Below are positions 1-62,177 of a stretch of DNA of 64,000 nt, one piece after another. The DNA comes from Candidatus Omnitrophota bacterium (lineage in GTDB: Bacteria > Omnitrophota > Gorgyraeia > JAFGHF01). Each line of letters starts with the position of its first letter. Position 1 is the first letter of the stretch. The notes under the pieces were generated by a model, which was not told the origin of the DNA, searched no databases, and was given only the letters and a program-made list of their open reading frames with translations. The translations under genes were made by a program, and so were the position numbers. Location of the stretch: the NCBI GenBank assembly GCA_020341815.1, contig CP070837.1, forward strand, positions 8,034 through 72,033. Reading direction: 5' to 3'.

Positions 1-1250
1 CCAAAGTCCGAAAAGCTCCTACTGGTAAGATTGTAACCTGCCTCCATCTGAAGATTATAATTTATAGGCAGGGCTAACCTGTTAAAGAAGGTGTGTCTTC
101 TGATATCAGATTCCCTGCTTGAGCTGTCTGCCTCAAAAAACTCATATCCCGATTTTAAAGAAATATGCCTTGCGATGAGTTCAACTTTTTCCAATGCTTC
201 TTTTGCCCTGAAATGCAAGGGGTAAACGCTGAGTATCCTTTTATATTCGGCCTCTGCCTCTTTCCACATAGACTGATAAGAATAAATCTGGCTTACATCA
301 AACATCGCCTCTACATTTTTCGGGTCTTTTTCAATGAGCCTCTTGTAATAGGAAATGGCTCCTCTTATGCGGTTGTTCCAATAGGCCTCTTTCGCCTTCA
401 ATTCCAGCTCAATTTTTTCATTGTATTTAGTGCTTAAAATTTTCCGGTATTCCTCTTTCGATTTCTCGTATTCCCTCGCCCAGCCGAGAACACGGGCCTT
501 GCGCAACCTAACGTCTTCATCTTCTGCCGCTGCGAGAATTTCATCATAACGGCTGAGGGACTTCTGGTAATTTCCGGAATAAGCATAGATATCTGCCAGA
601 TGGCTCTTTGCCTTTATATTGCCTGGCTCCTGCCGAAGAATTTCCTTCAAAATTTCTTCGGCGCGCTCATAATTTCCCGAGTAAAGCAGGGCCTGGGCCT
701 GAAGAAACTTAAGGTTTTGCTCTTCCAGCTTTTGTTTTTTTAGCTTCTTTTTCTTCTTTTCCTTTTCCTCCTCTTTTTCTTTCTCCATGAGGTCTTCGTA
801 AATTTCCGCCGCCTCTTGCACCTTGCCTGAATACTGCATCGTTTTCGCCAGCAATAATTGCGCCTCGTAATCATCGGGGTTTTCTTTCAGGATTCTCTCA
901 GCCGTATTTTTTGCTTTCTCGAACTGGTCACTCCACATATAAGCCTCTGTCAGGGCTCGCATTATAGCGTGATCCTTAGGGTTGCTGGCGAGAATCTGGT
1001 CAAACAGCTCTATCGCTCTTTGATAACCTCCCGTCCAAAGGCGCGCATATGCCAAATCTCTTACTGCTTGCGGATGCGAAGGATTTATTGTCAGGGCTTT
1101 CTCATATAATTCTATTGCCTTTTCAAATTCACCCTTTTCAAAAAAGCGTTGCCCCCGGTGATAATTCATATCGGCCTGTTGAGTATGCTGATAAATCAAT
1201 GTCGTTACCGCGGAAATCAATAATATGAAAATAATCCAGATTATTTTCAT
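1..1250 (-). CDS. TPR-repeat protein, 3' end runs off window (N-terminal signal/TM, many TPR units, C-terminal region looks beta-rich)
   Basis: Manual reverse-complement read from ATG at 1250-1248: MKIIWIIFILLISAVTTLIY... with repeated A..Y..G..A.......L TPR-like units and a KE-rich linker. No stop before position 1, so the ORF track missed it. Confidence 0.6.
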   Translation of the reverse strand, partial: MKIIWIIFILLISAVTTLIYQHTQQADMNYHRGQRFFEKGEFEKAIELYEKALTINPSHPQAVRDLAYARLWTGGYQRAIELFDQILASNPKDHAIMRALTEAYMWSDQFEKAKNTAERILKENPDDYEAQLLLAKTMQYSGKVQEAAEIYEDLMEKEKEEEKEKKKKKLKKQKLEEQNLKFLQAQALLYSGNYERAEEILKEILRQEPGNIKAKSHLADIYAYSGNYQKSLSRYDEILAAAEDEDVRLRKARVLGWAREYEKSKEEYRKILSTKYNEKIELELKAKEAYWNNRIRGAISYYKRLIEKDPKNVEAMFDVSQIYSYQSMWKEAEAEYKRILSVYPLHFRAKEALEKVELIARHISLKSGYEFFEADSSSRESDIRRHTFFNRLALPINYNLQMEAGYNLTSRSFSDF

Positions 1251-5836: not shown

Positions 5837-6421
5837 TTATCGCTGGGGCTCTTGGACACCCTCTTCTATATATTTAAAGAGAAATGTTGCTCTGGATAAT
5901 TTATCAAATAATATCTCTTCCTGAATAAAGGCGGGTGAGGTATCGATAAGCTTGGAAAGCCCTTCCCAGAATCCGAACCACCCCAGGGGCATAAGAATAA
6001 TTGCCATAATCTCAATAGCCAGCACGCTTAAAAACTTAAAATAGGTGGCCGTGGTTAAGAAGCCCAGAGAACAAATACCCACACCCACGAATATCGCCCC
6101 GCGAATGCGAATGCGCTTAATGATTTTCTTCTTCTGCAGAAAGCTATGGTGGAAATGCTCCTTCAGGTGGCGCGCAACCATTTGTTCGGACTCTTTATTC
6201 TTCAGGGAAATGGGGGCATAAATTACTATCACAAATTCGCCCTTTCGTGTTTCCCTGTATCGTTTTTTCAGCTCCTCAACAAAATCTCCGGAAACCGTGC
6301 GTTCATTCAAAGGCCTGGGGTCGAAATCGGAAAAGATATCATCCCAGGTGTCAATGACGACGGCTATCTCCCTTAAGTCCTGTATCCTTTGCTGTGTCTC
6401 TTTGTTAATCTTCTCTTTCAT
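5837..6421 (-). CDS. hypothetical protein with two central TM helices
   Basis: ORF with no recognisable motifs; translationally coupled to the histidine kinase. Confidence 0.4.
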   Translation of the reverse strand: MKEKINKETQQRIQDLREIAVVIDTWDDIFSDFDPRPLNERTVSGDFVEELKKRYRETRKGEFVIVIYAPISLKNKESEQMVARHLKEHFHHSFLQKKKIIKRIRIRGAIFVGVGICSLGFLTTATYFKFLSVLAIEIMAIILMPLGWFGFWEGLSKLIDTSPAFIQEEILFDKLSRATFLFKYIEEGVQEPQR

Positions 6422-12334: not shown

Positions 12335-12571
12335 GATGGCGTCCCCGGCACGATGCCTTCAATTCTGATAGATTATATCTTCCGTGGATACGCATTGTTT
12401 GCTCCCCGTTATTATACCAGAAAACGGCTGTCTGTAAAGGGCTATTTTGGCCTGCTTCTTTCCCGGATATACGACTATGCCCGCAACAAATGTCCTGATA
12501 AACTCCTTCTTTCTTTCCGGCTCTCCATAGCCTAATATACCCTTGAAATCATCTAAATAAGACAACATCTT
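12335..12571. repeat. 237-bp direct repeat copy 1 (att core gatggcgtccccgg plus recombinase 3' fragment)
   Basis: About 96% identical to 15744-15980. First 14 nt identical to the 3' end of tRNA-Arg at 26032-26045. Confidence 0.9.
12359..12568 (-). pseudogene. C-terminal 69-codon remnant of a large serine recombinase
   Basis: Translation MLSYLDDFKGILGYGEPERKKEFIRTFVAGIVVYPGKKQAKIALYRQPFSG... matches the last 69 aa of the recombinase at 15768-17405 with about 5 substitutions. Confidence 0.85.
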
Positions 12572-15743: not shown

Positions 15744-15980
15744 GATGGCGTCCCCGGCACGATGCCTTCAATTCTGATAGATTATATCTTCCGTGGATAC
15801 GCATTGTTTACTCCCCGCTATTATACCAGAAAACGGCTGTCTGTAAAGGGCTATTTTGGCCTGCCTCTTCTCTGGATATACGACTATGCCCGCAACAAAT
15901 GTCCTGACAAACTCCTTCTTCCTCTCCGGCTCTCCATAGCCTAATATACCCTTGAAATCATCTAAATAAGACAACATCTT
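15744..15980. repeat. 237-bp direct repeat copy 2 (att core plus intact recombinase 3' end)
   Basis: See copy 1. Preceded by cgaatt, matching the cgaatc flank of the tRNA-Arg 3' end. Confidence 0.9.
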
Positions 15981-26308: not shown

Positions 26309-26383
26309 TCGGGACGGGCAGATTCGAACTGCCGACCTTCTGCTCCCAAAGCAGACGCGCTAGCCAAACTGCGCTACGTCCCG
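26309..26383 (-). tRNA. tRNA-Pro(UGG), CCA not encoded
   Basis: Acceptor CGGGACG/CGTCCCG, anticodon loop TTTGGGA, T-loop TTCGAAT; 4 nt upstream of tRNA-Arg. Confidence 0.8.
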
Positions 26384-26480
26384 TTCCAAAATACTGCCAA
26401 GCTTTGTGCTTTGGCAAGACTAATGCCATATAGCACTAGTCTACTTTTAAAAATCAACCATTGAAGTATTTTGGAACGGG
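26380..26480. mobile_element. MITE-like TIR repeat, family 1, copy A
   Basis: TIRs CCCGTTCCAAAATAC / GTATTTTGGAACGGG around a central palindrome ctaatgccatatagcactag; abuts the tRNA-Pro 5' end. Confidence 0.7.
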
Positions 26481-26564
26481 ATACGTCCCCATTCTGCAGA
26501 CATACCCTCTTCCAAAATACCACCACAGTTCTCTGATTATAGCTTAAAAACGGGCCTCTGTCCA

Positions 26565-32212: not shown

Positions 32213-32900
32213 CGAAATAGAAAACTTACAAAAGCTTACCGAAAATATTTTTCTTGTGCTTCCGCAAACCAATATTCTTGTTATCGATGACGACTCTCCT
32301 GACGGAACAGGAAGGCTCGCCCAAAGCCTGGCCGGGAAAAATCACAAAATTAAACTGATCCAGAGGGGCGGAAAATCGGGTCTGGGAAGCGCCTATATCC
32401 GGGGATTTAGATATGCCCTTGAGAATAACTATGACTTTGTCTTTGAGATGGACGCCGACTTCTCGCATAACCCGAAATACCTGCCTGAATTTCTTAAGCA
32501 GGCTACACAGTACAATCTTATCCTGGGTTCGCGTTATATTAAAGGAGGGGGTATTACAGAGTGGGGTATCCTGCGCAAGTTGATCAGTTACGCAGCCAAC
32601 CTTTACGCAAGGATAATTTTAGGTCTTCCCTATCGCGATTTAACCGGAGGGTTTAAATGCTATTCTCAAGCCGCCTTAAGGAACCTGGAATTAGATTCCA
32701 TTATCTGTGAAGGCTATGGATTTCAGATAGAAACTACTTACAGGATTTACCGCAAAGGCCTCAGCATTAAAGAAATCCCCATTGTCTTTAAAGGCAGGCG
32801 CAGAGGAAAATCAAAGATTTCCCGTAAGATCTGTTTTGAGGCATTCTGGAAGGTGCCCTTATTGCGCTTTCGGCGTATTTACCCCGAACCAAAATACTAA
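32181..32900 (+). CDS. polyprenol-phosphate mannose synthase (GT2, Dpm1/Ppm1-like)
   Basis: IIIPTYNEIENL...VIDDDSPDGT...EMDADFSHNP motifs. The last 6 codons and stop lie in the MITE. Confidence 0.8.
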   Translation: MQTLIIIPTYNEIENLQKLTENIFLVLPQTNILVIDDDSPDGTGRLAQSLAGKNHKIKLIQRGGKSGLGSAYIRGFRYALENNYDFVFEMDADFSHNPKYLPEFLKQATQYNLILGSRYIKGGGITEWGILRKLISYAANLYARIILGLPYRDLTGGFKCYSQAALRNLELDSIICEGYGFQIETTYRIYRKGLSIKEIPIVFKGRRRGKSKISRKICFEAFWKVPLLRFRRIYPEPKY

Positions 32901-32984
32901 TAACAATCAATCTTTAAAGTGAACTAGTGCCATACGGCATTAGCTTGCTATTAGTTTTGACTGTTGGAGTATTTTAGTTCGGGG
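32882..32984. mobile_element. MITE-like TIR repeat, family 1, copy B (inverted orientation)
   Basis: CCCCGAACCAAAATACT ... AGTATTTTAGTTCGGGG; sits between convergent ppm1 and rdgB and supplies both stop codons. Confidence 0.7.
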
Positions 32985-33583
32985 TTTAACTTAAAATATT
33001 TTATAATAAGTCTTTTTGCCGCCTTTAGCGCCCGGGCGCGATGGCTTATTTTATTTTTTATCTTGGGCTTGAGCTGGGCAAAGGTCTTTCCGTATTTTGG
33101 AACGATAAACACCGGGTCGTAGCCGAAGCCGTATTTTCCCTTCGGGCTAAAAGCAATCCTGCCGCGAATCTTTCCCTCCACCAGGCCGATAACTTTCGGA
33201 TAATCGCAAAGCGCCACAACACACCTGAATTGCGCGCCTCGCTCCTTCATCTTCTTGCCCTTGAGCATCTTGAGAAGCTTCCGGTTATTCCGGGCATAGG
33301 TTGCATTCTTTCCGGCAAAACGCGCAGAACGCACACCGGGTAAGCCGCCCAAGACATCTGTCTCCAGACCGGAATCATCCGCTAAGGCCGGCCTTTTAGT
33401 AAACTTAGAAACTGCCTGCGCTTTACGCAGGGCGTTTTCCCGAAAGCAACTGGCGCCTTCTTTTACTTCAGGGCAGTCAGGATACTTATTCAGCGAAACT
33501 ACCTTCACCCCCAGGCCCTTAAGGAGTTGCTTCAATTCCCTTTCCTTATCGCGGTTTTTGGTGGCAATTACTAATTCTCTCAT
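32951..33583 (-). CDS. rdgB: non-canonical purine NTP pyrophosphatase RdgB/Ham1
   Basis: [10 protein letters not shown]...DDSGLE...FGYDPVF motifs; the C-terminal about 12 aa are encoded by the MITE. Confidence 0.8.
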
Positions 33584-34302
33584 CTGCCTTTTCCCAGAAT
33601 GCGCTTCTCAGCCGCAATTAACTCCCTTATCCCCTTGGAAGCCAAATCAAGCAAATCGCGCATCTGTTTTCTGGAAAAGGGCTCTTTCTCGGCTGTGCCC
33701 TGAATTTCTACAAGCTTATCCCTACCGGTCATTACCACATTCATGTCCACAGAGGCAGATGAATCCTCCGCATAACTAAGGTCTAAGAGGAACTTGTCGT
33801 TGCATATACCCACACTGACAGCCGCCACATAATCTTTAAGCGGTAACTTATCAAACAATTTATCCTTTTGCAATTTCTCAAGGCACTGCACCAAAGCCAC
33901 GAAGCCTCCGGTAATTGAGGCCGTGCGTGTTCCTCCGTCGGCCTGCAGGACATCGCAGTCTATCCAGATAGTCCGCTCACCTAATTTATCTAATTCCGCT
34001 GCCGCTCTTAAAGAACGGCCGATAAGCCGCTGAATTTCCTGGGTACGTCCGCTGACCTTGCCAATTCTGGCCTCGCGGGGGATACGCTGAGCGCATGAAC
34101 GCGGCAACATCCCGTATTCGGCGCTGATCCAGCCCACACCCTGTCCTCTCAGGAAAGGAGGAACCCTTTCCTCTAAGGTCGCTGTGCAAGCCACCTTAGT
34201 CTTGCCTAACTCTATCAGGCAAGACCCTTCGGCATACTTGTTATAGCCGGGTTTTATCTTGAGCCGCCTTAATTTGTTGTTACTCCTGCCGCCTGCACGC
34301 AT
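33580..34302 (-). CDS. rph: ribonuclease PH
   Basis: [12 protein letters not shown] motif; 240 aa. Confidence 0.85.
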
Positions 34303-34835
34303 TATCCTGCCTTCCTTTTATATATATCCCTGCCTGCTGAATCAATTCCCACAATAAGAGGGAAGTCTTCCACCTCTAATCTATATATTGCCTCCGGGCC
34401 GAATTTTTTATAGGCTACGACCCTGGCCTTCTTTACCCTGGTGGAAAGCAGGGCCCCGCATCCTCCGATGGCCAGAAAATATACAGCCTTGTATTTCTTA
34501 ATGGCTGCTCTCACCTGAGGGCTTCTCGGGCCCTTACCAATCATCCCTTTAAGACCCACCTTCAACAAATCCAAAGTAAAATCATCCATCCGCGAGCTGG
34601 TGGTGGGGCCGCAGGAGCCGATAACTCTATCTTTTTGACGAGGGGTAGGCCCGCAGTAATAAATTACCTGATCCCTCAGGCAAATAGGCAGCTTTCTGTT
34701 ATGCCTTACGGCATCTGAAAGCTCCTGATGAGCTAAATCGCGCGCCGTATAAATAACTCCGCTTAGCGAAACCTCATCGCCGACTTTTAAGGATTTGATA
34801 CTCTTTTCTGCCAGAGGGCTGTAGATTCTCTTCAC
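34302..34835 (-). CDS. class I fumarate hydratase / Fe-S hydro-lyase beta subunit (GTG start)
   Basis: Family-typical GGCGALL region. Start codon is GTG at 34835-34833, inside the hairpin element. Confidence 0.75.
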
Positions 34836-34913
34836 CCCGCCCTTCCTTTCCTCGTAATGCCAAGGTTTCGTCCCCGTCCTTCTGATGTTTTGGAAGGGCG
34901 GGGTTCATCTTTA
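34833..34913 (-). promoter_or_regulatory. intergenic stop-hairpin-GTG module, copy 1
   Basis: UGAACCCCGCCCUUCC...GGAAGGGCGGGGUG: 12-bp GC stem between the stop of the alpha subunit and the GTG of the beta subunit, with the AGGAAGG SD inside the 3' arm. Confidence 0.6.
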
Positions 34914-35753
34914 TATCCGCCTGGAGGCGCTCCTTAAGGCGTGACAACTAATGTTTATGGCCACAGGAAGCCCGGCGATATGCGTGGGAGCTGTTAAGAC
35001 ATTTACGCCTAAGCAGGTAGTCTTTCCTCCCAAACCCATCGGGCCGATACCCAATCGATTGATTTTGTTAAGCAATTCTTTTTCTAACTTCGCTACTATT
35101 TTATCGCTATTCTTTCTCTTGAGCGGACGCAATAAGGCCTCTTTAGCTAAAGATGCCGCCCGATCGGATGTTGCGCCTATACCCACTCCGACTATAAAAG
35201 GCGGACAGGCCTCACTCCCGGCAAGCTTGACCTCTCGAATAATAAAGTCTTTAATTTTCTCTGGACCCTCGCTGGGTTTAAACATCCGGAGTGCGCTTTT
35301 GTTTTCGCAGCCAAAACCTTTTGGCAGAACAGCCAGCTCAAGGTGCGCACCCTTTACTATCTCAACAGTCACAACTGCCGGAGAAAATCCAGGAGTCGTC
35401 TTTCTCTTGAGCGGATGGGCAGTAATGGAATTGCGCAAGTAACCTTTTCTATACCCCTCTTCAACCCCTTTGTTTATTGCCTTTAAAAAGTCGCCTCCGA
35501 CAATTAATACTTCCTGTCCCAATTTCACAAAAACGCAAGGCAGGCCCGTATCCTGACAAATCGCCAGCTTAAACTTGCGCGCGCAGGCAGCATTATCCAA
35601 TAGCATCTGAAGAATGCCGCGGGCACGGGGATTGTCCTCCCGGGCCAGCGAAAGACGCAAGGCGCGCTTTACATCACTGCGCAAATTAGTATTGGCTTCA
35701 ATGCAAAGTTCGGATATGATACTCGTTATTTGGCGGGCATGAATTTTACGCAT
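34911..35753 (-). CDS. class I fumarate hydratase / Fe-S hydro-lyase alpha subunit
   Basis: CQDTGLPCVFVKLG Fe-S cluster ligand region; 280 aa. Confidence 0.8.
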   Translation of the reverse strand: MRKIHARQITSIISELCIEANTNLRSDVKRALRLSLAREDNPRARGILQMLLDNAACARKFKLAICQDTGLPCVFVKLGQEVLIVGGDFLKAINKGVEEGYRKGYLRNSITAHPLKRKTTPGFSPAVVTVEIVKGAHLELAVLPKGFGCENKSALRMFKPSEGPEKIKDFIIREVKLAGSEACPPFIVGVGIGATSDRAASLAKEALLRPLKRKNSDKIVAKLEKELLNKINRLGIGPMGLGGKTTCLGVNVLTAPTHIAGLPVAINISCHALRSASRRI

Positions 35754-35754
35754 T

Positions 35755-36429
35755 TTATTTTGCCCCTGTCATCTTATGTAATTGCGGAATAACCTTTACA
35801 CACGATAGGTAGCGCGAGCAATATTTCTCCCAGAGCCTGACCTTTGCCAGGAGGTCTTTATTCAATTCAAAAAAATTGGGCTGTAAAATCAAAGGGACCT
35901 TTTTCGCGCGCAACTTTAAGATTACCTTGAGGGCCTTCTCTAAATCTATGCGCTCGGTGGTCTGACAGATAACTACCTTAACAAATACCTCTTTCTTCAA
36001 AGCTATTTTTAGAAATTTTTGATGCTCCTGCCAATACTCAAGGCTGCCCGTAGAGCTGGGCAGCTTAAAATCCATGGCAACAATATCGATATCTTCGATA
36101 ATATGAGCCAGCTCGTCCGCCAATATGCCGTTGGTTTCTAAATAAGTGGCAATGCCGTCATATTTAACCAATCTTAAGAATTCCTTCAGAAAATCATGCT
36201 GCTGCAGCGGCTCTCCTCCCGTCAGGCAAAGCGAGTGATATGGAACCTTAAATCTCTTAACCCTATCATATAATTCTAAAGGAGTATATTTATCGTAGGC
36301 ATTTAACCGGGTATCGCAAAAGCGGCAGGCCTGCTTACAACCATAGAAACGCACAAAGACCTGAGGAGTTCCCGCATATAAACCCTCTCCCTGAAGACTG
36401 AAAAATATATCGGCAACTTTTGCTTTCAC
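35755..36429 (-). CDS. queE: 7-carboxy-7-deazaguanine synthase QueE (radical SAM), GTG start
   Basis: IFFSLQGEGLYAGTPQVFVRFYGCKQACRFCDT signature; GTG start inside hairpin element copy 2. Confidence 0.75.
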   Translation of the reverse strand: MKAKVADIFFSLQGEGLYAGTPQVFVRFYGCKQACRFCDTRLNAYDKYTPLELYDRVKRFKVPYHSLCLTGGEPLQQHDFLKEFLRLVKYDGIATYLETNGILADELAHIIEDIDIVAMDFKLPSSTGSLEYWQEHQKFLKIALKKEVFVKVVICQTTERIDLEKALKVILKLRAKKVPLILQPNFFELNKDLLAKVRLWEKYCSRYLSCVKVIPQLHKMTGAK

Positions 36430-36538
36430 CCCGCCCTTCCTTTCTTCGTAATGCCATAGTTAAATTTTACTTTTGCCAAACTATTACCTTCGCCCATATC
36501 TATTATGCAATGCGTGGTGTTTGGAAGGGCGGGGTTCA
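36427..36538 (-). promoter_or_regulatory. intergenic stop-hairpin-GTG module, copy 2
   Basis: Same 22-nt 5' and 30-nt 3' conserved arms as copy 1, with a longer variable loop. Confidence 0.6.
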
Positions 36539-37873
36539 TAAGGCCTCCCCCGCTAAATCGTATTCTAAAGTGTCGGTTATTTTCACCTTTACGAAATCAC
36601 CCGCCTTAAGCTTTTTTCCAGACTTCACATAAACGCAGCCATCGACTTCGGGCGCATCGCCTTCTGTGCGCCCCAAAAATATATTTTTATCGCTTGAGGT
36701 TTCTTCATCGATAAGAAGGCACAACTCTTTTCCCAGAAAGCCCTGATTGATTTTTGTGCAAATATCCTGCTGTAGAGAAAGGGCTTGCCTATATCGGGCT
36801 TGTTTTATTTTTTCGGGAATCTGCCGTGCAAAATTAGAGGCCCGAGTGCCTTGCTCCTGCGAATACTTAAAAAGGCCCAGCCGCTCAAATTTTACTTCAC
36901 GGATAAAGTCCAGAAGTTCAGTGAACTCTTTATCCGTCTCCCCCGGAAAACCGACCATCAGCGTCGTCCTGATAAAAACTCCGGGGATTTCTTTTCTTAT
37001 TTTTTCAATCAGGGAAAGAATCTGCCTGCGCGAGGTGCGCCGGTTCATCCTCTTGAGTATTTTATCATTTATATGTTGAATAGGCAAGTCGATATATTTA
37101 CAAACCGAAGGCTCATCCCTGATAACATCTATCAACTCGCTAGATACATGCGCCGGATGGGCATATAACAGCCTTATCCATTTGCCTTTTGCCTGGCGGG
37201 ATATTTTCCTGATGAGCTCAGGAGCTTTTCCCAGCCTCATATGCAAATCCTGCCCGTAAAGAGTGGTATCCTGCCCGATTAAATTAATTTCGCTTACCCC
37301 TTGCTCCTCAAAAAGATGCCTGGTCTCTTTAAGGATAGAGCCCATCTTTCTTGAGCGGTGCCTACCGCGCAAATCAGGAATTACGCAGTAACTGCAACGG
37401 TTATTGCAGCCTTCGGATATCTTTACATAGGCAAAGTGTTCGGGTGTAAGCAATATGCGGGGTGAGGTGTGCGTATATAGAAAATCGCTCGGTCCGAATT
37501 TGCCAAAGCTTTTCTCCGAACCTATATTTTTTACCACAGCGGCAATCTTATCGATACTGCCCACGCCCACGAAGACATCCACCTCTTTAAGCTCCGGCAA
37601 TAGTTTATCTTTATATCGCTGCGCAAGGCATCCGCATACTATAATTGCCTCTATCTTGCCTTCTTTTTTCAGCCGGCCGAGATTGAGGATTGCATCAATG
37701 GACTCTTCTTCCGCCTCGCGGATAAAGCTGCAGGTATTCACAATTGCCACATCTGCCTCTGCGACTTCATCAGAAATCCCGAAGCCGGCCTTCTTCAAAT
37801 ACCCCAGCATCACTTCACTATCCACCAGATTTCTGGCGCAACCTAAGCTAAGTATCCCTATCTTTGCTTTCAT
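36536..37873 (-). CDS. rimO: ribosomal protein S12 methylthiotransferase RimO
   Basis: SLGCARNLVDSEVMLG MTTase N-domain, CSYCVIP radical SAM, C-terminal TRAM. Confidence 0.75.
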   Translation of the reverse strand: MKAKIGILSLGCARNLVDSEVMLGYLKKAGFGISDEVAEADVAIVNTCSFIREAEEESIDAILNLGRLKKEGKIEAIIVCGCLAQRYKDKLLPELKEVDVFVGVGSIDKIAAVVKNIGSEKSFGKFGPSDFLYTHTSPRILLTPEHFAYVKISEGCNNRCSYCVIPDLRGRHRSRKMGSILKETRHLFEEQGVSEINLIGQDTTLYGQDLHMRLGKAPELIRKISRQAKGKWIRLLYAHPAHVSSELIDVIRDEPSVCKYIDLPIQHINDKILKRMNRRTSRRQILSLIEKIRKEIPGVFIRTTLMVGFPGETDKEFTELLDFIREVKFERLGLFKYSQEQGTRASNFARQIPEKIKQARYRQALSLQQDICTKINQGFLGKELCLLIDEETSSDKNIFLGRTEGDAPEVDGCVYVKSGKKLKAGDFVKVKITDTLEYDLAGEAL

Positions 37874-46892: not shown

Positions 46893-46921
46893 AATGACGT
46901 AAGTTTGTTGGCCGAATATGA

Positions 46922-47026
46922 CCCCGTACCAAAAATACTTCAACAGTCAAAACTAAAAGCAAACTAATGCTATATGGCACTAGTTCACTTTTAAAAATCA
47001 ACCGTTGTTAGTATTTTGGTACGGGG
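46922..47026. mobile_element. MITE-like TIR repeat, family 1, copy C1
   Basis: CCCCGTACCAAAAATACT...AGTATTTTGGTACGGGG; between the GT39 gene and the rnpB 3' end. Confidence 0.7.
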
Positions 47027-47085
47027 TTAATTCGCACAGCGACTTATGTTCACTAGTGTTCCATAAGTCGTGTGTTCATTAAAGA

Positions 47086-47536
47086 GAGTAGAGCTATAAG
47101 CCGAGTTCTGTATTTGACGGCCATCCATCTAGTTTTGCCGTTACCGACAAAATCAATAGCGGTCAACCCGAAAGTGCTGACGAACCGGGTGAAGCTCGTT
47201 GCCATATAAGCATCCCTTCCTATTTAACCTTTCTCCGCGTAGAGATTACCTCTTTTCACCCTCTGCCCAGAAAAATTTTTCTGGATGAGTTGTTGTCTCT
47301 GTGGCTCTAATCCTATCCCGAACCAAAATACTTCAACAGTCAAAACTAAAAGCAAACTAATGCTATATGGCATTAGTTATGCCAAAAGTATAAAACTTAG
47401 CAGTATTTTGGTTCGGGACGATGGGCGTTACCCACTACGCTCACCCTTTGGAGCTCGGACTTTCCTCTCCCCCTGCTGTTTCGTTTTGCTTCGCAAAAGC
47501 GAAACAAAACGACAGGGGCAGCGACCATCCGCTCTA
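47086..47536 (-). ncRNA. rnpB: RNase P RNA (bacterial type A) carrying a MITE insertion in P9
   Basis: Minus-strand read: P1 AGAGAGUAGAGC/GCUCUACUCUCU, CR-I GGAAAGUCCGAGCUCC, P8 GUGGGUAACGCCCAU, CAGAGGGUGAAA...GGUAAUCUCUAC (CR-II/III), ACAGAACUCGGCUUAUAG (CR-V). Confidence 0.8.
47317..47417. mobile_element. MITE-like TIR repeat, family 1, copy C2, inserted inside rnpB
   Basis: CCCGAACCAAAATACT...AGTATTTTGGTTCGGG lying between P8 and the P10/11 strand, i.e. replacing/extending P9. Confidence 0.7.
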
Positions 47537-47554
47537 CTCTCTTACAAAGAACAA

Positions 47555-48700: not shown

Positions 48701-48824
48701 TTAGTCGCTCGTATCTAGTCGCTAGTCGCTTGTATTTAATATCTCGTTAAAAACTCTTTATTTAATTATTAAATCTTTTATTTTTCTATTTTTACTAGAT
48801 ACTAAATACTATATACTAGCGACT
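48701..48824. mobile_element. TAGTCGCT-type TIR element, empty copy X1
   Basis: tagtcgctcgtatctagtcgctagtcgcttgtat ... actagatactaaatactatatactagcgact inverted repeats around an AT-rich 60-bp core. Confidence 0.6.
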
Positions 48825-48829
48825 TATAA

Positions 48830-48904
48830 TGGTGGGCCCACAAGGATTCGAACCTTGAACCAACAGATTATGAGTCTGCTGCTCTGCCGTTGAGCTATGA
48901 GCCC
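48830..48904 (-). tRNA. tRNA-Met (CAU anticodon; elongator or Ile2-lysidine type not resolved)
   Basis: GGGCTCATAGCTCAACGG...CTCATAA...GGTTCGAATCC...CCA. Confidence 0.75.
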
Positions 48905-55044: not shown

Positions 55045-55314
55045 ATGGAGGCAGCAATGTCAAGAATTTGCGCAATCTGCGGAAAAAGACCTTTTGCCGG
55101 AAGAAGCATTACCCGCCGCGGTATGGCCAAGAAAAAAGGCGGCGTGGGTAGAAAAATTACCGGCATCAGTAAACGTATCTTTGCCCCTAATCTGCAAAGA
55201 ATCAAAGCTATTGTAAAGGGAACGGTAAAACGAATCTACGTCTGCACCAGATGTCTTAAGGCCGGCAAGGTACAAAAACCCAGTCGCTCGTATCCAGTCG
55301 ATAGTATTCAGTAA
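55045..55314 (+). CDS. rpmB: 50S ribosomal protein L28 with repeat-derived C-terminal extension
   Basis: MSRICAICGKRP...FAPNLQRIKAI...VCTRCLKAGKVQK, then 11 extra residues encoded by element X2. Confidence 0.8.
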   Translation: MEAAMSRICAICGKRPFAGRSITRRGMAKKKGGVGRKITGISKRIFAPNLQRIKAIVKGTVKRIYVCTRCLKAGKVQKPSRSYPVDSIQ

Positions 55315-55445
55315 CTAGTATTCCGTATCTCGTATTTCGTATATAGTATTTCGTTAAAAGCTTTTTTGTTCAATTCTTAAATCTTTTACTTTATATTTTA
55401 CTAAATACAAGATACTAGCGACGAGCGACTAGATACTAACGACTG
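55282..55445. mobile_element. TAGTCGCT-type TIR element, empty copy X2
   Basis: Inverted gtcgctcgtatccagtcgatagtat... / ...gatactagcgacgagcgactagatac around an AT-rich core; overlaps the rpmB and recJ stop codons. Confidence 0.6.
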
Positions 55446-59314: not shown

Positions 59315-61169
<1,855 letters not shown>

Positions 61170-61173
<4 letters not shown>

Positions 61174-62177
61174 ATTATCAACATGGCATCGCCATAGGAG
61201 AAAAATCTATATTTTCTCTCGATTGCCTGCCTGTATGCCTCGAATAGCAACTCTTTCCCCGCAAAGGCACTCACCAGCATTAGAAGCGTGGATTTGGGAA
61301 AATGAAAATTGGTCAGAAGGCAATCTACCGCCTTGAAATCATAAGGGGGATAGATAAATAAATCCGTCCAGCCCTCTCTGCCGCTGGCACTTTCCAAAAC
61401 ACGCACGGATGTCGTGCCTACGGCAAGGACCCTGCCGCCTTGTCTGCGCGTAGCGTTAATTGTCTTTTTTGTTTCTTCAGGCAGGATAAAATATTCCTTG
61501 TGCATTTTATGCCTGCTCAAATCCTCACTCTTGACAGGGGCGAATGTTCCGTAATTGATATGCAAAGTCAGATAAACCACATTTACGCCTTTGGCCCGGA
61601 TATCCTCTAAAACTTCCTTAGTGAAATGCAATCCTGCCGTAGGAGCGGCAGTGGCACCTTCAACTTCTGCATAAACCGTCTGGTATCTTTCTGCATCTGA
61701 CTCTACAGGCTCTCTTTTGATATACGGGGGAAGCGGCACTCTGCCAAACTCACGCCAGATGTCCCGACCGCTAAACTTTACAATCTTACTCATCCCTTGG
61801 TCGCTCAGCACCGTAGCAGATGAGCTGCCGTTATTAAACACTATTTTCATACCCGTGGTTAATTTTTTTGCGGGGCGGGCTAAAACGCGATACGTATTAT
61901 CGGATAAGTCTTCCTGAAAAAATACCTCCTGTCTGCCGCCGGCTGTGCTTTGTCTTCTGCCAATCAGCCTGGCGCAAATTACCCGCGTATTATTCAAAAC
62001 CAGGCAGTCCCCGGGTAAAAGATAGTCAAGGATATCCTGAAAATGCCCGTGCCTAATCCTTTTTTTGGCCCGCTCCAGGACTAACAGCCGCGAGTCCTGC
62101 CTCCGGACTAAAGGATATTGGGCAATCAGCTCTTTAGGTAAGTGATAATCAAAATCAGAAAGTCTCATAATCTGCAC
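61170..62177 (-). CDS. queA: S-adenosylmethionine:tRNA ribosyltransferase-isomerase
   Basis: LSDFDYHLPKELIAQYP...TAGLHFT. Confidence 0.9.

Follow-up and report, generated by a model that had tools for sequence, protein, structure and literature searches.

A shared hairpin block at two gene junctions

We analysed a 64,000-nucleotide stretch of the genome of a Candidatus Omnitrophota bacterium (assembly GCA_020341815.1, contig CP070837.1, positions 8,034 to 72,033 of the forward strand), hereafter the window, in which the minus-strand genes rimO, queE and those encoding fumarase alpha (fumA) and beta (fumB) follow one another. A sequence-only reading of the window had pointed to the fumarase alpha/beta and rimO/queE junctions as carrying the same sequence, and both copies were recovered there on the minus strand. 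In the direction of the genes each junction reads ATGAA-CCCCGCCCTTCC-AAA...TGGCATTACGA(G/A)GAAA-GGAAGGGCGGGG-TGAA, with a loop of 45 nt in copy 1 (fumarase) and 82 nt in copy 2 (queE), in good agreement with the about 45 and about 80 nt first estimated, and four identical bases, TGAA, flank the shared block on either side of both copies. The paired-arm pattern had no match in 100 shuffles of the sequence, while the 17-mers ATGAACCCCGCCCTTCC and AGGAAGGGCGGGGTGAA have a chance expectation of about 0.2 occurrences each; chance is ruled out as the source of the two matching junctions. A covariance model run over the whole window found these two copies only, copy 2 at 69.5 bits and copy 1 at 66.1 bits, the next match reaching 15 bits.

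The genes that follow the two copies begin within them. The fumarase beta open reading frame (ORF) matches Pfam Fumerase_C (E = 4e-57), and its N-terminus, (V)KRIYSPL, aligns with the MKKVY and MRKIY of relatives. QueE homologues begin MKAK... or M(S/N/K)KAK... at the position of the queE GTG, which is therefore taken as the true start position. RNA folding gave a 13-bp stem in both transcripts (-37.8 kcal/mol, z = -4.5, and -39 kcal/mol, z = -2.0), made up of the 12 G/C-rich pairs that had been counted before and one A-U pair contributed by the flanking TGAA repeats. As had also been proposed, the 3' arm (arm 3) holds a ribosome-binding site and lies within this predicted stem together with the GTG start. 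The description of the 5' side needs correction: the block opens with ATG rather than TGA, and a stop at the base of the stem is right for the TGA of rimO but not for fumarase alpha, which ends at a TAA (34913-34911), the stem-base TGA there being out of frame. All features are listed in Table 1.

Table 1. Features of the two window copies, their host genes and members of the second arm family (window positions, or positions in the named locus for the second family; mini-ORF, short open reading frame from the retained ATG)
Feature	Position	Strand	Remark
Copy 1 with both flanking repeats (ATGAA...GTGAA)	34831-34908	minus	Fumarase alpha/beta junction
Copy 1, element proper	34835-34903 (69 nt)	minus	Sequence read
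Copy 1, retained original fumarase beta ATG	34908-34906	minus	Relatives start fumB here (MKKVY, MKKIY, MRKIY)
Copy 1, 5' TGAA of the 4-nt target-site duplication	34907-34904	minus	Matches TGAA at 34831-34834
Copy 1, arm 1, CCCCGCCCTTCC	34903-34892	minus	5' terminal inverted repeat, anti-Shine-Dalgarno-like strand; mini-ORF codons 2-6
Copy 1, loop	34891-34847 (45 nt)	minus	
Copy 1, arm 2, AGAAGGACGGGG	34883-34872	minus	Internal, degenerate, G-rich; able to pair with arm 1, arm 3 then free
Copy 1, arm 3, GGAAGGGCGGGG	34846-34835	minus	AA directly 5' (part 34835-34848); final G is base 1 of the new GTG
Copy 1, Shine-Dalgarno-like AAGGAAGG	34848-34841	minus	Arm 3 and lead-in
Copy 1, rebuilt fumarase beta GTG	34835-34833	minus	Overlaps the 3' TGAA, 34834-34831
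Copy 1, mini-ORF, 44 codons, MNPALPKHQK...	34908-34774	minus	Out of frame; translation
Copy 2 with both flanking repeats	36425-36539	minus	rimO/queE junction
Copy 2, element proper	36429-36534 (106 nt)	minus	Sequence read
Copy 2, retained ATG	36539-36537	minus	Overlaps the rimO stop TGA, 36538-36536
Copy 2, arm 1, CCCCGCCCTTCC	36534-36523	minus	
Copy 2, loop	36522-36441 (82 nt)	minus	
Copy 2, arm 3 with Shine-Dalgarno-like AAGGAAGG	36440-36429	minus	Part 36427-36442 including GTG
Copy 2, rebuilt queE GTG	36429-36427	minus	QueE homologues begin MKAK... here
Copy 2, mini-ORF, 37 codons, MNPALPNTTHCIIDMGEGNSLAKVKFNYGITKKGRAG	36426-36539	minus	Ends ...KGRAG*; TGA 36428-36426 overlaps the queE GTG (GTGA, -4)
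rimO	36536-37873	minus	Host gene
queE	35755-36429	minus	Host gene
Fumarase alpha	34911-35753	minus	Host gene
Fumarase beta	34302-34835	minus	Host gene
Second family, L005	6470-6584		Before a FabH-like gene (N-terminus read by eye)
Second family, L015	about 510-660		Before an HU-like gene (N-terminus read by eye)
Second family, L074	near 6110-6200	minus	Before a XerD-like gene (N-terminus read by eye)
Second family, L070	7945-8000		

Copies in other genomes and their insertion sites

The arms were searched for in one genome per species as two arms 25-85 nt apart, which listed at least 112 stretches; loci outside the window are given here by L numbers. Among the matches listed, about 65-70 distinct copies with identical ends occur in at least 25 metagenome-assembled genomes (MAGs) of Candidatus Omnitrophota, and low-GC matches also come from a few MAGs labelled Planctomycetia, Elusimicrobia or 'bacterium'; about 54 of the distinct copies (about 80%) stand at gene starts. 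Once oriented, the low-GC copies read ...ATGAA-CCCCGCCCTTCC-(T/A)AA...purine-rich-GGAAGGGCGGGG-TGAA, followed by a long ORF from the GTG. Statistics are given for a set of 54 copies whose arms have up to two mismatches and which coincide exactly with the start of an ORF 60-570 codons long. The element proper measures 26-110 nt, is bounded by perfect 12-nt terminal inverted repeats and contains no transposase gene, only a mini-ORF of 7-52 codons, with nothing conserved outside the arms; its loops differ freely in length (25-85 nt) and sequence. At least 17 copies come from one MAG, JAUWBJ01, among them a subfamily whose 82-nt loops are nearly identical and which occupies six or more different genes, and L067 has two 77-nt twins at different genes. 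The orientation relative to the gene, readable from the asymmetric loop, is uniform, the model giving 55-80 bits forward versus 25-35 bits in reverse.

The downstream genes, whose N-termini were read by eye, look like unrelated housekeeping genes without a common pathway; candidates are glycerol-3-phosphate dehydrogenase, CoaD, acetate kinase, MurG, NusA, ScpB, QueF and QueE, together with TrpA, TrpS, KdsB, IlvB, PurN, PurQ and the ribosomal proteins L4, S6 and S18. A conserved small protein was considered and rejected: the 3' segment common to the two window copies is translated in a different frame in each, and no residues other than MNPALP and KGRAG, both encoded by the arms, recur. No copy was matched in viral contigs, and a metagenome scan via QueE gave 64 pattern matches, none of them confirmed. 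The shortest version seen, at L040 5203-5237, is a 26-nt element, GTGAA-CCCCGCTCTTGC-GC-GCAAGGGCGGGG-TGAA, in which the loop is nearly absent. Many REP-like (repetitive extragenic palindromic) high-GC palindromes sharing the 11-nt core CCCGCCCTTCC/GGAAGGGCGGG were also found in Erythrobacteraceae and in a Geminicoccaceae MAG (L001, L006, L008-L010, L017-L020, L024 and others). These matches and those in Streptomyces were set aside as longer high-GC palindromes with palindromic flanks and no ATGAA/GTGAA; they are probably unrelated.

Since the search pattern fixed the arms elsewhere, constraint on the stem was read only from copies that happened to be present in the same loci. In these, compensatory changes from C-G to U-A were seen at pair 7 counted from the outer end (L102 5442), at pair 11 (L055 1741, L040 6937, L067 5021) and at pair 1 (L011, L029a, L034, L085), and changes from C-G to G-C at pair 11 in L040 5203 and at pair 12 in L011; L071 has a stem variant of 13 pairs.

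The flanks of the start copies read TGAA/TGAA in 44 cases and TGAG/TGAG in 4, to which L029a is added, only part of its left flank having been read; no copy with TGAA on the left had TGAG on the right. Divergent copies found by the model read TAAA/TAAA (4) or CTGA/CTGA (1), and directly 5' of the repeat 46 of the 54 start copies have an A and 4 a G. The aligned flanks show a target of roughly T[G/A]A[A/G], overwhelmingly TGAA within an ATGAA start (Met-Lys or Met-Asn), with a 4-bp duplication. The window itself offers 635 TGAA sites, of which 104 are intergenic and only about 15 are [A/G]TGAA gene starts, yet it is at starts that about 80% of the elements lie. Copies at TAAA, often a stop codon or a spacer, indicate that non-start targets are used as well. 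In two tandem doublets (L060 2739-2956 and L102 5326-5551) the second copy lies within the GTGAA regenerated by the first. At L014 6693-6810 a copy with a CTGA/CTGA duplication sits at CTGA, seven codons into a 398-codon frame (MDIEKRL/KKIPTSPGV...); the insertion either disrupts this gene or leaves it to start again from an unusual codon.

Relatives with a QueE 69-78% identical to that of the window keep the order queD-queC-queE-fumA-fumB-rph-ham1 and provided the unoccupied counterparts of both junctions. At fumB, L113 and L114 read GCGGTTATAAGA-ATGAA-AAAGGTTTAC (fumA...TAAGA-ATGAA-AAAGG), L116 reads ...AAGCT-ATGAA-AAAAATTTAT and L119 and L120 read ATGAG-AAAAAT, while the filled site of the window is GCGGATATAAAG-ATGAA, 69 nt, G-TGAA-GAGAATCTAC. 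The queE start is likewise a plain ATGAA(A/G) in L113, L116, L118 and L119 (ATGAAGAAAGCA, ATGAAAAAAGCA, ATGAAGGCAAAG and ATGAAAGCAAAG, respectively) and an empty ATGAG in L115, as compared with GTGAAAGCAAAAG after the element in the window. At queE, L120 carries a copy of the window's TGGCATTA subfamily, within which the L120 contig is broken off.

We read the block as a mobile hairpin on the strength of its dispersed copies, the 4-nt duplication that covaries, the orthologous sites found empty and the GTG formed from the terminal G and the duplicated TG, and an inserted mobile repeat is very likely what it is. A transposase making 4-bp staggered cuts would account for the duplication, the only feature from which we infer it. 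It had been suggested beforehand that an absence of further copies, together with a lack of the stem at the orthologous junctions of relatives, would speak against a portable module; at least 65-70 copies are present in other genomes, whereas the junctions of close relatives do lack the stem, which tells against a conserved junction device.

Two observations concern the surroundings of these sites. Gene order breaks exactly at copy 2, queE following queD-queC in the relatives (L113, L115, L116, L118) and rimO in the window, and no homologue of queC, queD, the amidase or the racemase was found within the 64-kb window; the break would be accounted for if two copies of the element, located at the starts of different genes, had recombined. 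The fumA/fumB junction of L115 (4860-4935) carries a different insert of 44 nt with flanks GTGAA...GTGAA, a small hairpin GATTGTG-TCCCGAG-CACAATC and a GTG start for fumB; no second copy of it was present in the loci examined.

Rebuilt start codons and a predicted translational coupling

The terminal base of the element is G and the duplicated target opens with TG, so that the host ORF gains an in-frame GTG; the new start is made from the element's G and the TG of the duplicated TGAA, and the old reading frame is kept. Where the outermost pair is T-A (L029a, L034, L085), an ATG is rebuilt instead. At 5-8 nt upstream of the new start stands AAGGA/GGAAGG, supplied by the 3' arm together with its conserved purine-rich lead-in (AGAAAGGAAGG; consensus AGAAAGGAAGGGCGGGGTG). 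Concomitantly, the original ATG and any native ribosome-binding site persist at the 5' flank, as in copy 2 with GGGGGAGG five bases upstream, and the retained ATG opens a mini-ORF, M-N-P-A-L-P..., whose codons 2-6 (N-P-A-L-P) are arm 1, and which covers arm 1 in every copy. Its frame is the one that ends at the UGA of GUGA (-4) in 26 of the 54 copies, and in 17 it is open throughout the AT-rich loop versus 4.1 expected from loop shuffles. In 7 of the 54, all short (loops of 26-32 nt), the mini-ORF is in frame with the host gene, with a predicted extension MNPALP...RKGGV-K....

We propose that in the mRNA the 13-bp stem would hide the new ribosome-binding site and GUG. The duplex of arms 1 and 3 is worth about -27 kcal/mol, and the minimum-free-energy fold sequesters arm 3; since opening arm 3 and the GUG into single strand costs roughly 14-16 kcal/mol in both window copies, initiation at the GUG is expected to be poor when unaided. 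A ribosome coming from the retained AUG would have to melt arm 1, which would release the new ribosome-binding site and the GUG, and at operon junctions such as both of those in the window a ribosome ending the upstream gene could open the stem too. Translation of the host gene would thereby still be coupled to its original initiation signals. In about one third of the copies, including copy 2, the mini-ORF would terminate at GUGA, with the classic -4 spacing of termination-reinitiation, and in a few short copies the element would be read in frame as an N-terminal extension. The loop also holds a degenerate G-rich arm complementary to arm 1, at z < -2 in 37 of the 54 copies; in copy 1 the duplex of arms 1 and 2 reaches -18.5 kcal/mol (z = -3.4 versus shuffled loops), and a copy 1 transcript truncated before arm 3 folds as the arm1:arm2 hairpin. 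Such an alternative hairpin would hold the start region open during transcription.

The best explanation overall is probably a non-autonomous mobile hairpin, resembling MITEs (transposable elements of the miniature inverted-repeat kind), that is widespread in Candidatus Omnitrophota and keeps its host genes translated in the way proposed. The coupling through the mini-ORF, taken by itself, is only slightly favoured.

A number of points weigh against this account. On the side of mobility, no arm pairs 300-4000 nt apart enclosing a transposase were found in the loci examined, the four pairs at that spacing being separate small copies that flank host genes; as neither a parent element nor a transposase with matching ends is present in these loci, the case for mobility is a comparative one only. 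Arm conservation is inflated, the family having been ascertained with exact 11-nt arms, and this applies to the 99.6% of cells paired over 53 copies. The bias towards start codons may mean either that the enzyme sees more than TGAA or that only self-repairing insertions survive and intergenic ones disappear. On the side of translation, every step is one that we infer. The mini-ORF stops within the loop, past arm 1, in 27 of the 54 copies, and an obvious Shine-Dalgarno-like motif precedes the retained ATG in only 25 of the 54 by a crude test. Copy 1, one of three awkward cases, departs from the -4 design, its mini-ORF running out of frame to 59 nt beyond the GTG. Finally, the frame statistics are weakened by the many copies that come from one MAG and are not independent.

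The mechanism first suggested for the two junctions was a literal one, in which the stem is opened by the ribosome that terminates on the upstream gene and then starts again at the GTG, the hairpin being a coupling module specific to operon junctions. The upstream TGA does overlap the retained ATG (ATGA) in 17 of the 54 copies, as it does for rimO, a stop lies 0-14 nt away in about 14 more, as for fumA (2 nt), and a ribosome at such stops would cover arm 1. However, for 15 of the 54 copies no ORF ends within 150 nt upstream, so this is not the general mechanism; the fumA stop is not the stem-base TGA; and abutting or overlapping stops and starts are normal in these compact genomes before any insertion, for example queC-ATGA-queE in L118. 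We regard this version as unlikely. A portable translational-coupling module stays plausible, but its partner is probably the mini-ORF of the retained ATG, found in nearly all copies, rather than the upstream stop.

Alternative origins and known precedents

A different route of mobility would be transfer as single-stranded DNA by a Y1/HUH enzyme, as for REP/RAYT or IS200/IS605-like elements, with insertion beside a tetranucleotide and no true duplication. IS200/IS605 elements insert 3' of a target tetranucleotide and are not known to duplicate it, and REPs are extragenic palindromes of 20-40 nt, usually after genes, that are headed by GTAG or CGTC. A Y1/HUH enzyme would suit the form of the element, one G/C-rich hairpin at whose foot a tetranucleotide is conserved, and likewise the maintained complementarity of the arms, as expected for a folded-hairpin substrate, and the lack of a DDE-type parent in the loci examined. 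The tetranucleotides nevertheless behave as direct repeats that change together (TGAG/TGAG, TAAA/TAAA, CTGA/CTGA) and are single at empty sites, the signature of a staggered-cut duplication, and no internal guide change tracks the flank variants (of the TAAA-type copies 3 of 6 have altered arms, and two have standard arms). This route is decidedly unlikely. The same flanks, duplicated and covarying on both sides, led us to reject an IS200/IS605-derived palindromic element. The sequence-only reading had offered a REP-type mobile hairpin bringing its own GTG; its mobile part proved essentially right on the copies, the covarying duplication, the empty sites and the joined G and TG, whereas the REP/RAYT class itself does not fit elements that have direct TGAA flanks without GTAG or CGTC and lie at 5' gene starts, not 3' ends. 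Two further classes were set aside. Integron attC sites are imperfect palindromes bounded by the core sites RYYYAAC ... GTTRRRY, a consensus that is matched neither by the gene-strand ends GATGAAC and GGTGAA nor by GTTCAT on the opposite strand; for IS5-type ends, GGAAGG stands at the inner, not the outer, end of the arm.

A second hairpin family has arms (T/C)CCCGTTAGA...TCTAACGGG(A/G), and also (T/C)CCCGTTAGACCTC or ...GAAAT with its complement. Its members have in common CCCG...CGGG ends, ATGA[A/G] and TGA[A/G] flanks, a GGAGG within the 3' arm or immediately ahead of it, and a start rebuilt as ATG or GTG, the ATG arising from a terminal A and the TG. As this family reaches the same solution with a different sequence, it argues that the architecture rather than a particular sequence is what persists. 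An extended form of the proposal would be a start-codon-homing class of elements with (T/C)CCCG ends and at least two arm families, moved by an enzyme that recognises translation-start DNA, through whose three-arm RNA dozens of housekeeping genes would come to rely on the translation of a common leader, MNPALP...; we would give this little credence. If true, it would amount to a transposon-built, genome-wide layer of translational control in Omnitrophota.

The hairpin might instead be a host-selected cis-regulatory RNA (a riboswitch, thermosensor or leader-peptide attenuator) that many genes have taken up, forming a regulon, its stem being opened by a signal or a stalled ribosome. In agreement with such a device, the start region is sequestered in a very stable stem, the three-arm layout provides an alternative arm1:arm2 hairpin in the 37 copies mentioned above, all copies have the leader MNPALP, open -4-coupled leaders are enriched, and compensatory changes keep complementarity. 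Yet the loops, where a ligand pocket would lie, are conserved neither in length nor in sequence, the downstream genes have no common pathway, the closest relatives lack the element at the same genes, the flanking duplications show arrival by insertion, and a G/C-rich stem of 12 pairs is too stable for a thermosensor. Rfam 15 gave no match at the gathering threshold in the whole window and nothing relevant in the region at E <= 10; the best sub-threshold match near the element was PreQ1, at 15.8 bits against a threshold of 39 and on the antisense strand. A regulatory RNA is very improbable, and the RNA switch that had been suggested for the two junctions is not borne out by the missing Rfam match, the unrelated downstream genes, the freely varying loops or the close relatives without the element.

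A structural or stability element without a role in translation (terminator, attenuator, mRNA-stabilising REP-like hairpin or RNase III site) would suit a stable, G/C-rich hairpin and, in copy 1, an antisense arm2:arm1 hairpin followed by TTCATCTTTA that scores terminator-like, but it can be dismissed as hardly credible, the coding strand having no U-tract after the stem and no terminator call, the copies lying at gene 5' ends, on the start codon and in one orientation, and such an element having no need to rebuild an in-frame start codon. An intrinsic terminator was in particular rejected, with no minus-strand call at either copy and a 3' flank of UGAAG or UGAAA.

For an inserted mobile hairpin that repairs the start codon, the closest precedent is the mycobacterial interspersed repetitive unit (MIRU), reportedly described by Supply et al. 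in 1997. We know of no sequence resemblance between the two, which were not aligned. The likeness lies in the start codon as target and in the internal ORF, whose end overlaps the host start at -4 (open in the 17 of 54 Omnitrophota copies given above, with copy 2 among them and copy 1 not), in the tetranucleotide direct repeats of filled sites and the empty counterparts in relatives, and in G/C-rich internal inverted repeats. MIRUs are described as landing on start codons and as having an internal ORF coupled at -4 and tetranucleotide direct repeats, and that ORF has been interpreted as allowing an insertion that hardly alters expression (PMC12548453, PMC3184786); the direct repeats are accompanied by empty sites in M. 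leprae (PMC3184786). In contrast, the Omnitrophota element belongs to another phylum, its perfect 12-nt terminal inverted repeats form one long stem that hides the new ribosome-binding site, and both a Shine-Dalgarno motif and base 1 of the new start codon come from the element. The -4 design is found in only about one third of its copies, and these are single or, in L060 and L102, doublets, not variable-number tandem arrays. By analogy, the element appears to work like a MIRU, but it is not filed as a member of the MIRU family.

Its general form is that of MITEs. Like Correia/NEMIS, ERIC, RUP and Nezha, it is small and without a transposase gene, has terminal inverted repeats and a target-site duplication, and occurs as many dispersed copies with stable RNA stem-loops and with filled and empty orthologous sites. 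Four of the features by which a MITE is recognised were found, namely the size, the terminal inverted repeats, a 4-nt duplication with single-copy empty sites and dispersed near-identical copies. Known MITEs, however, are mostly intergenic and have TA or longer duplications, whereas the Omnitrophota copies stand mostly on the start codon and repair it; in a 2024 review of prokaryotic MITEs the words 'start codon' and 'ribosome' are absent (PMC10969869). Neisseria REP2 also brings a promoter and a 5' untranslated region and has two small internal stem-loops, no terminal inverted repeats or flanking duplications being mentioned (PMC3184786). In REP2 and in the Borrelia upstream repeats the start codon is wholly element-borne, in contrast to the one element base and duplicated target seen here.

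Two further comparisons bear on how the element is read. The palindromic repeats of Rickettsia (RPEs) are tolerated in coding sequence when in frame (PMC10969869), which recalls the in-frame N-terminal extensions of 7 of the 54 copies; RPEs, however, are ORF-internal and about 150 bp long, while the in-frame mode of the Omnitrophota element is a minority one that depends on loop length. Leader-peptide attenuation of the ermC and cat type, and engineered bicistronic designs, likewise place a short ORF over the hairpin strand that hides a downstream ribosome-binding site, so that translation exposes the site, and delivery of ribosomes by a short ORF has been discussed (PMC12548453). These systems differ in being gene-specific and inducer-responsive via stalling, whereas neither a stalling signal nor an inducer is evident in the Omnitrophota element, which is spread by transposition.

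Literature searches returned no description of these elements in Omnitrophota, and such repeats go unmentioned in a 2026 survey covering 176 complete Omnitrophota genomes. The novelty lies in the phylum, the perfect terminal hairpin hiding its own ribosome-binding site, the donated first base of the start codon and the presence of at least two arm families; the MIRU logic was known. The element would be a second, independent and much cleaner case of the MIRU principle, in which a mobile element colonises start codons by carrying the parts that repair translation (one start-codon base, a ribosome-binding site and a coupled mini-ORF), and this strategy would be present in a deep, uncultivated phylum with two or more arm families. 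In practical terms, gene callers will set starts at the GTG or predict spurious N-terminal extensions (MNPALP...), assemblies are interrupted within the repeat, as happened to contig L120, and copies may drive rearrangements, as suggested by the synteny break at copy 2. The element may also be regarded as a ready-made natural bicistronic design and a candidate portable expression part.

Other repeats in the window

The RNase P RNA of the window (47081-47540, minus strand) measures 460 nt against a 367-nt model, with a 97-nt insert (47319-47415) replacing a 4-nt hairpin loop. The insert coincides with a copy of another, AT-rich palindromic repeat of about 100 nt and looks like a small mobile palindrome within a structural RNA. 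Further copies of this repeat, with the core ACTAATGC[C/T]ATA..GCA[C/T]TAGT, lie at 26375-26486, 32878-32989 and 46918-47031; one adjoins a tRNA gene, one lies between convergent genes and one is just 3' of the RNase P RNA. The window also contains a 237-nt direct repeat (12335-12571 and 15744-15980; 96% identity, 3.4 kb apart) and clustered short repeats of the AGTCGCTAGT / ATACTAG type in both orientations, some of them beside tRNA genes (48703-48830, 55282-55444, 60732-60797 and 61134-61178). Finally, the GC content falls to 0.28-0.38 between 18001 and 26000, versus about 0.43-0.49 elsewhere, and this stretch is possibly acquired DNA.

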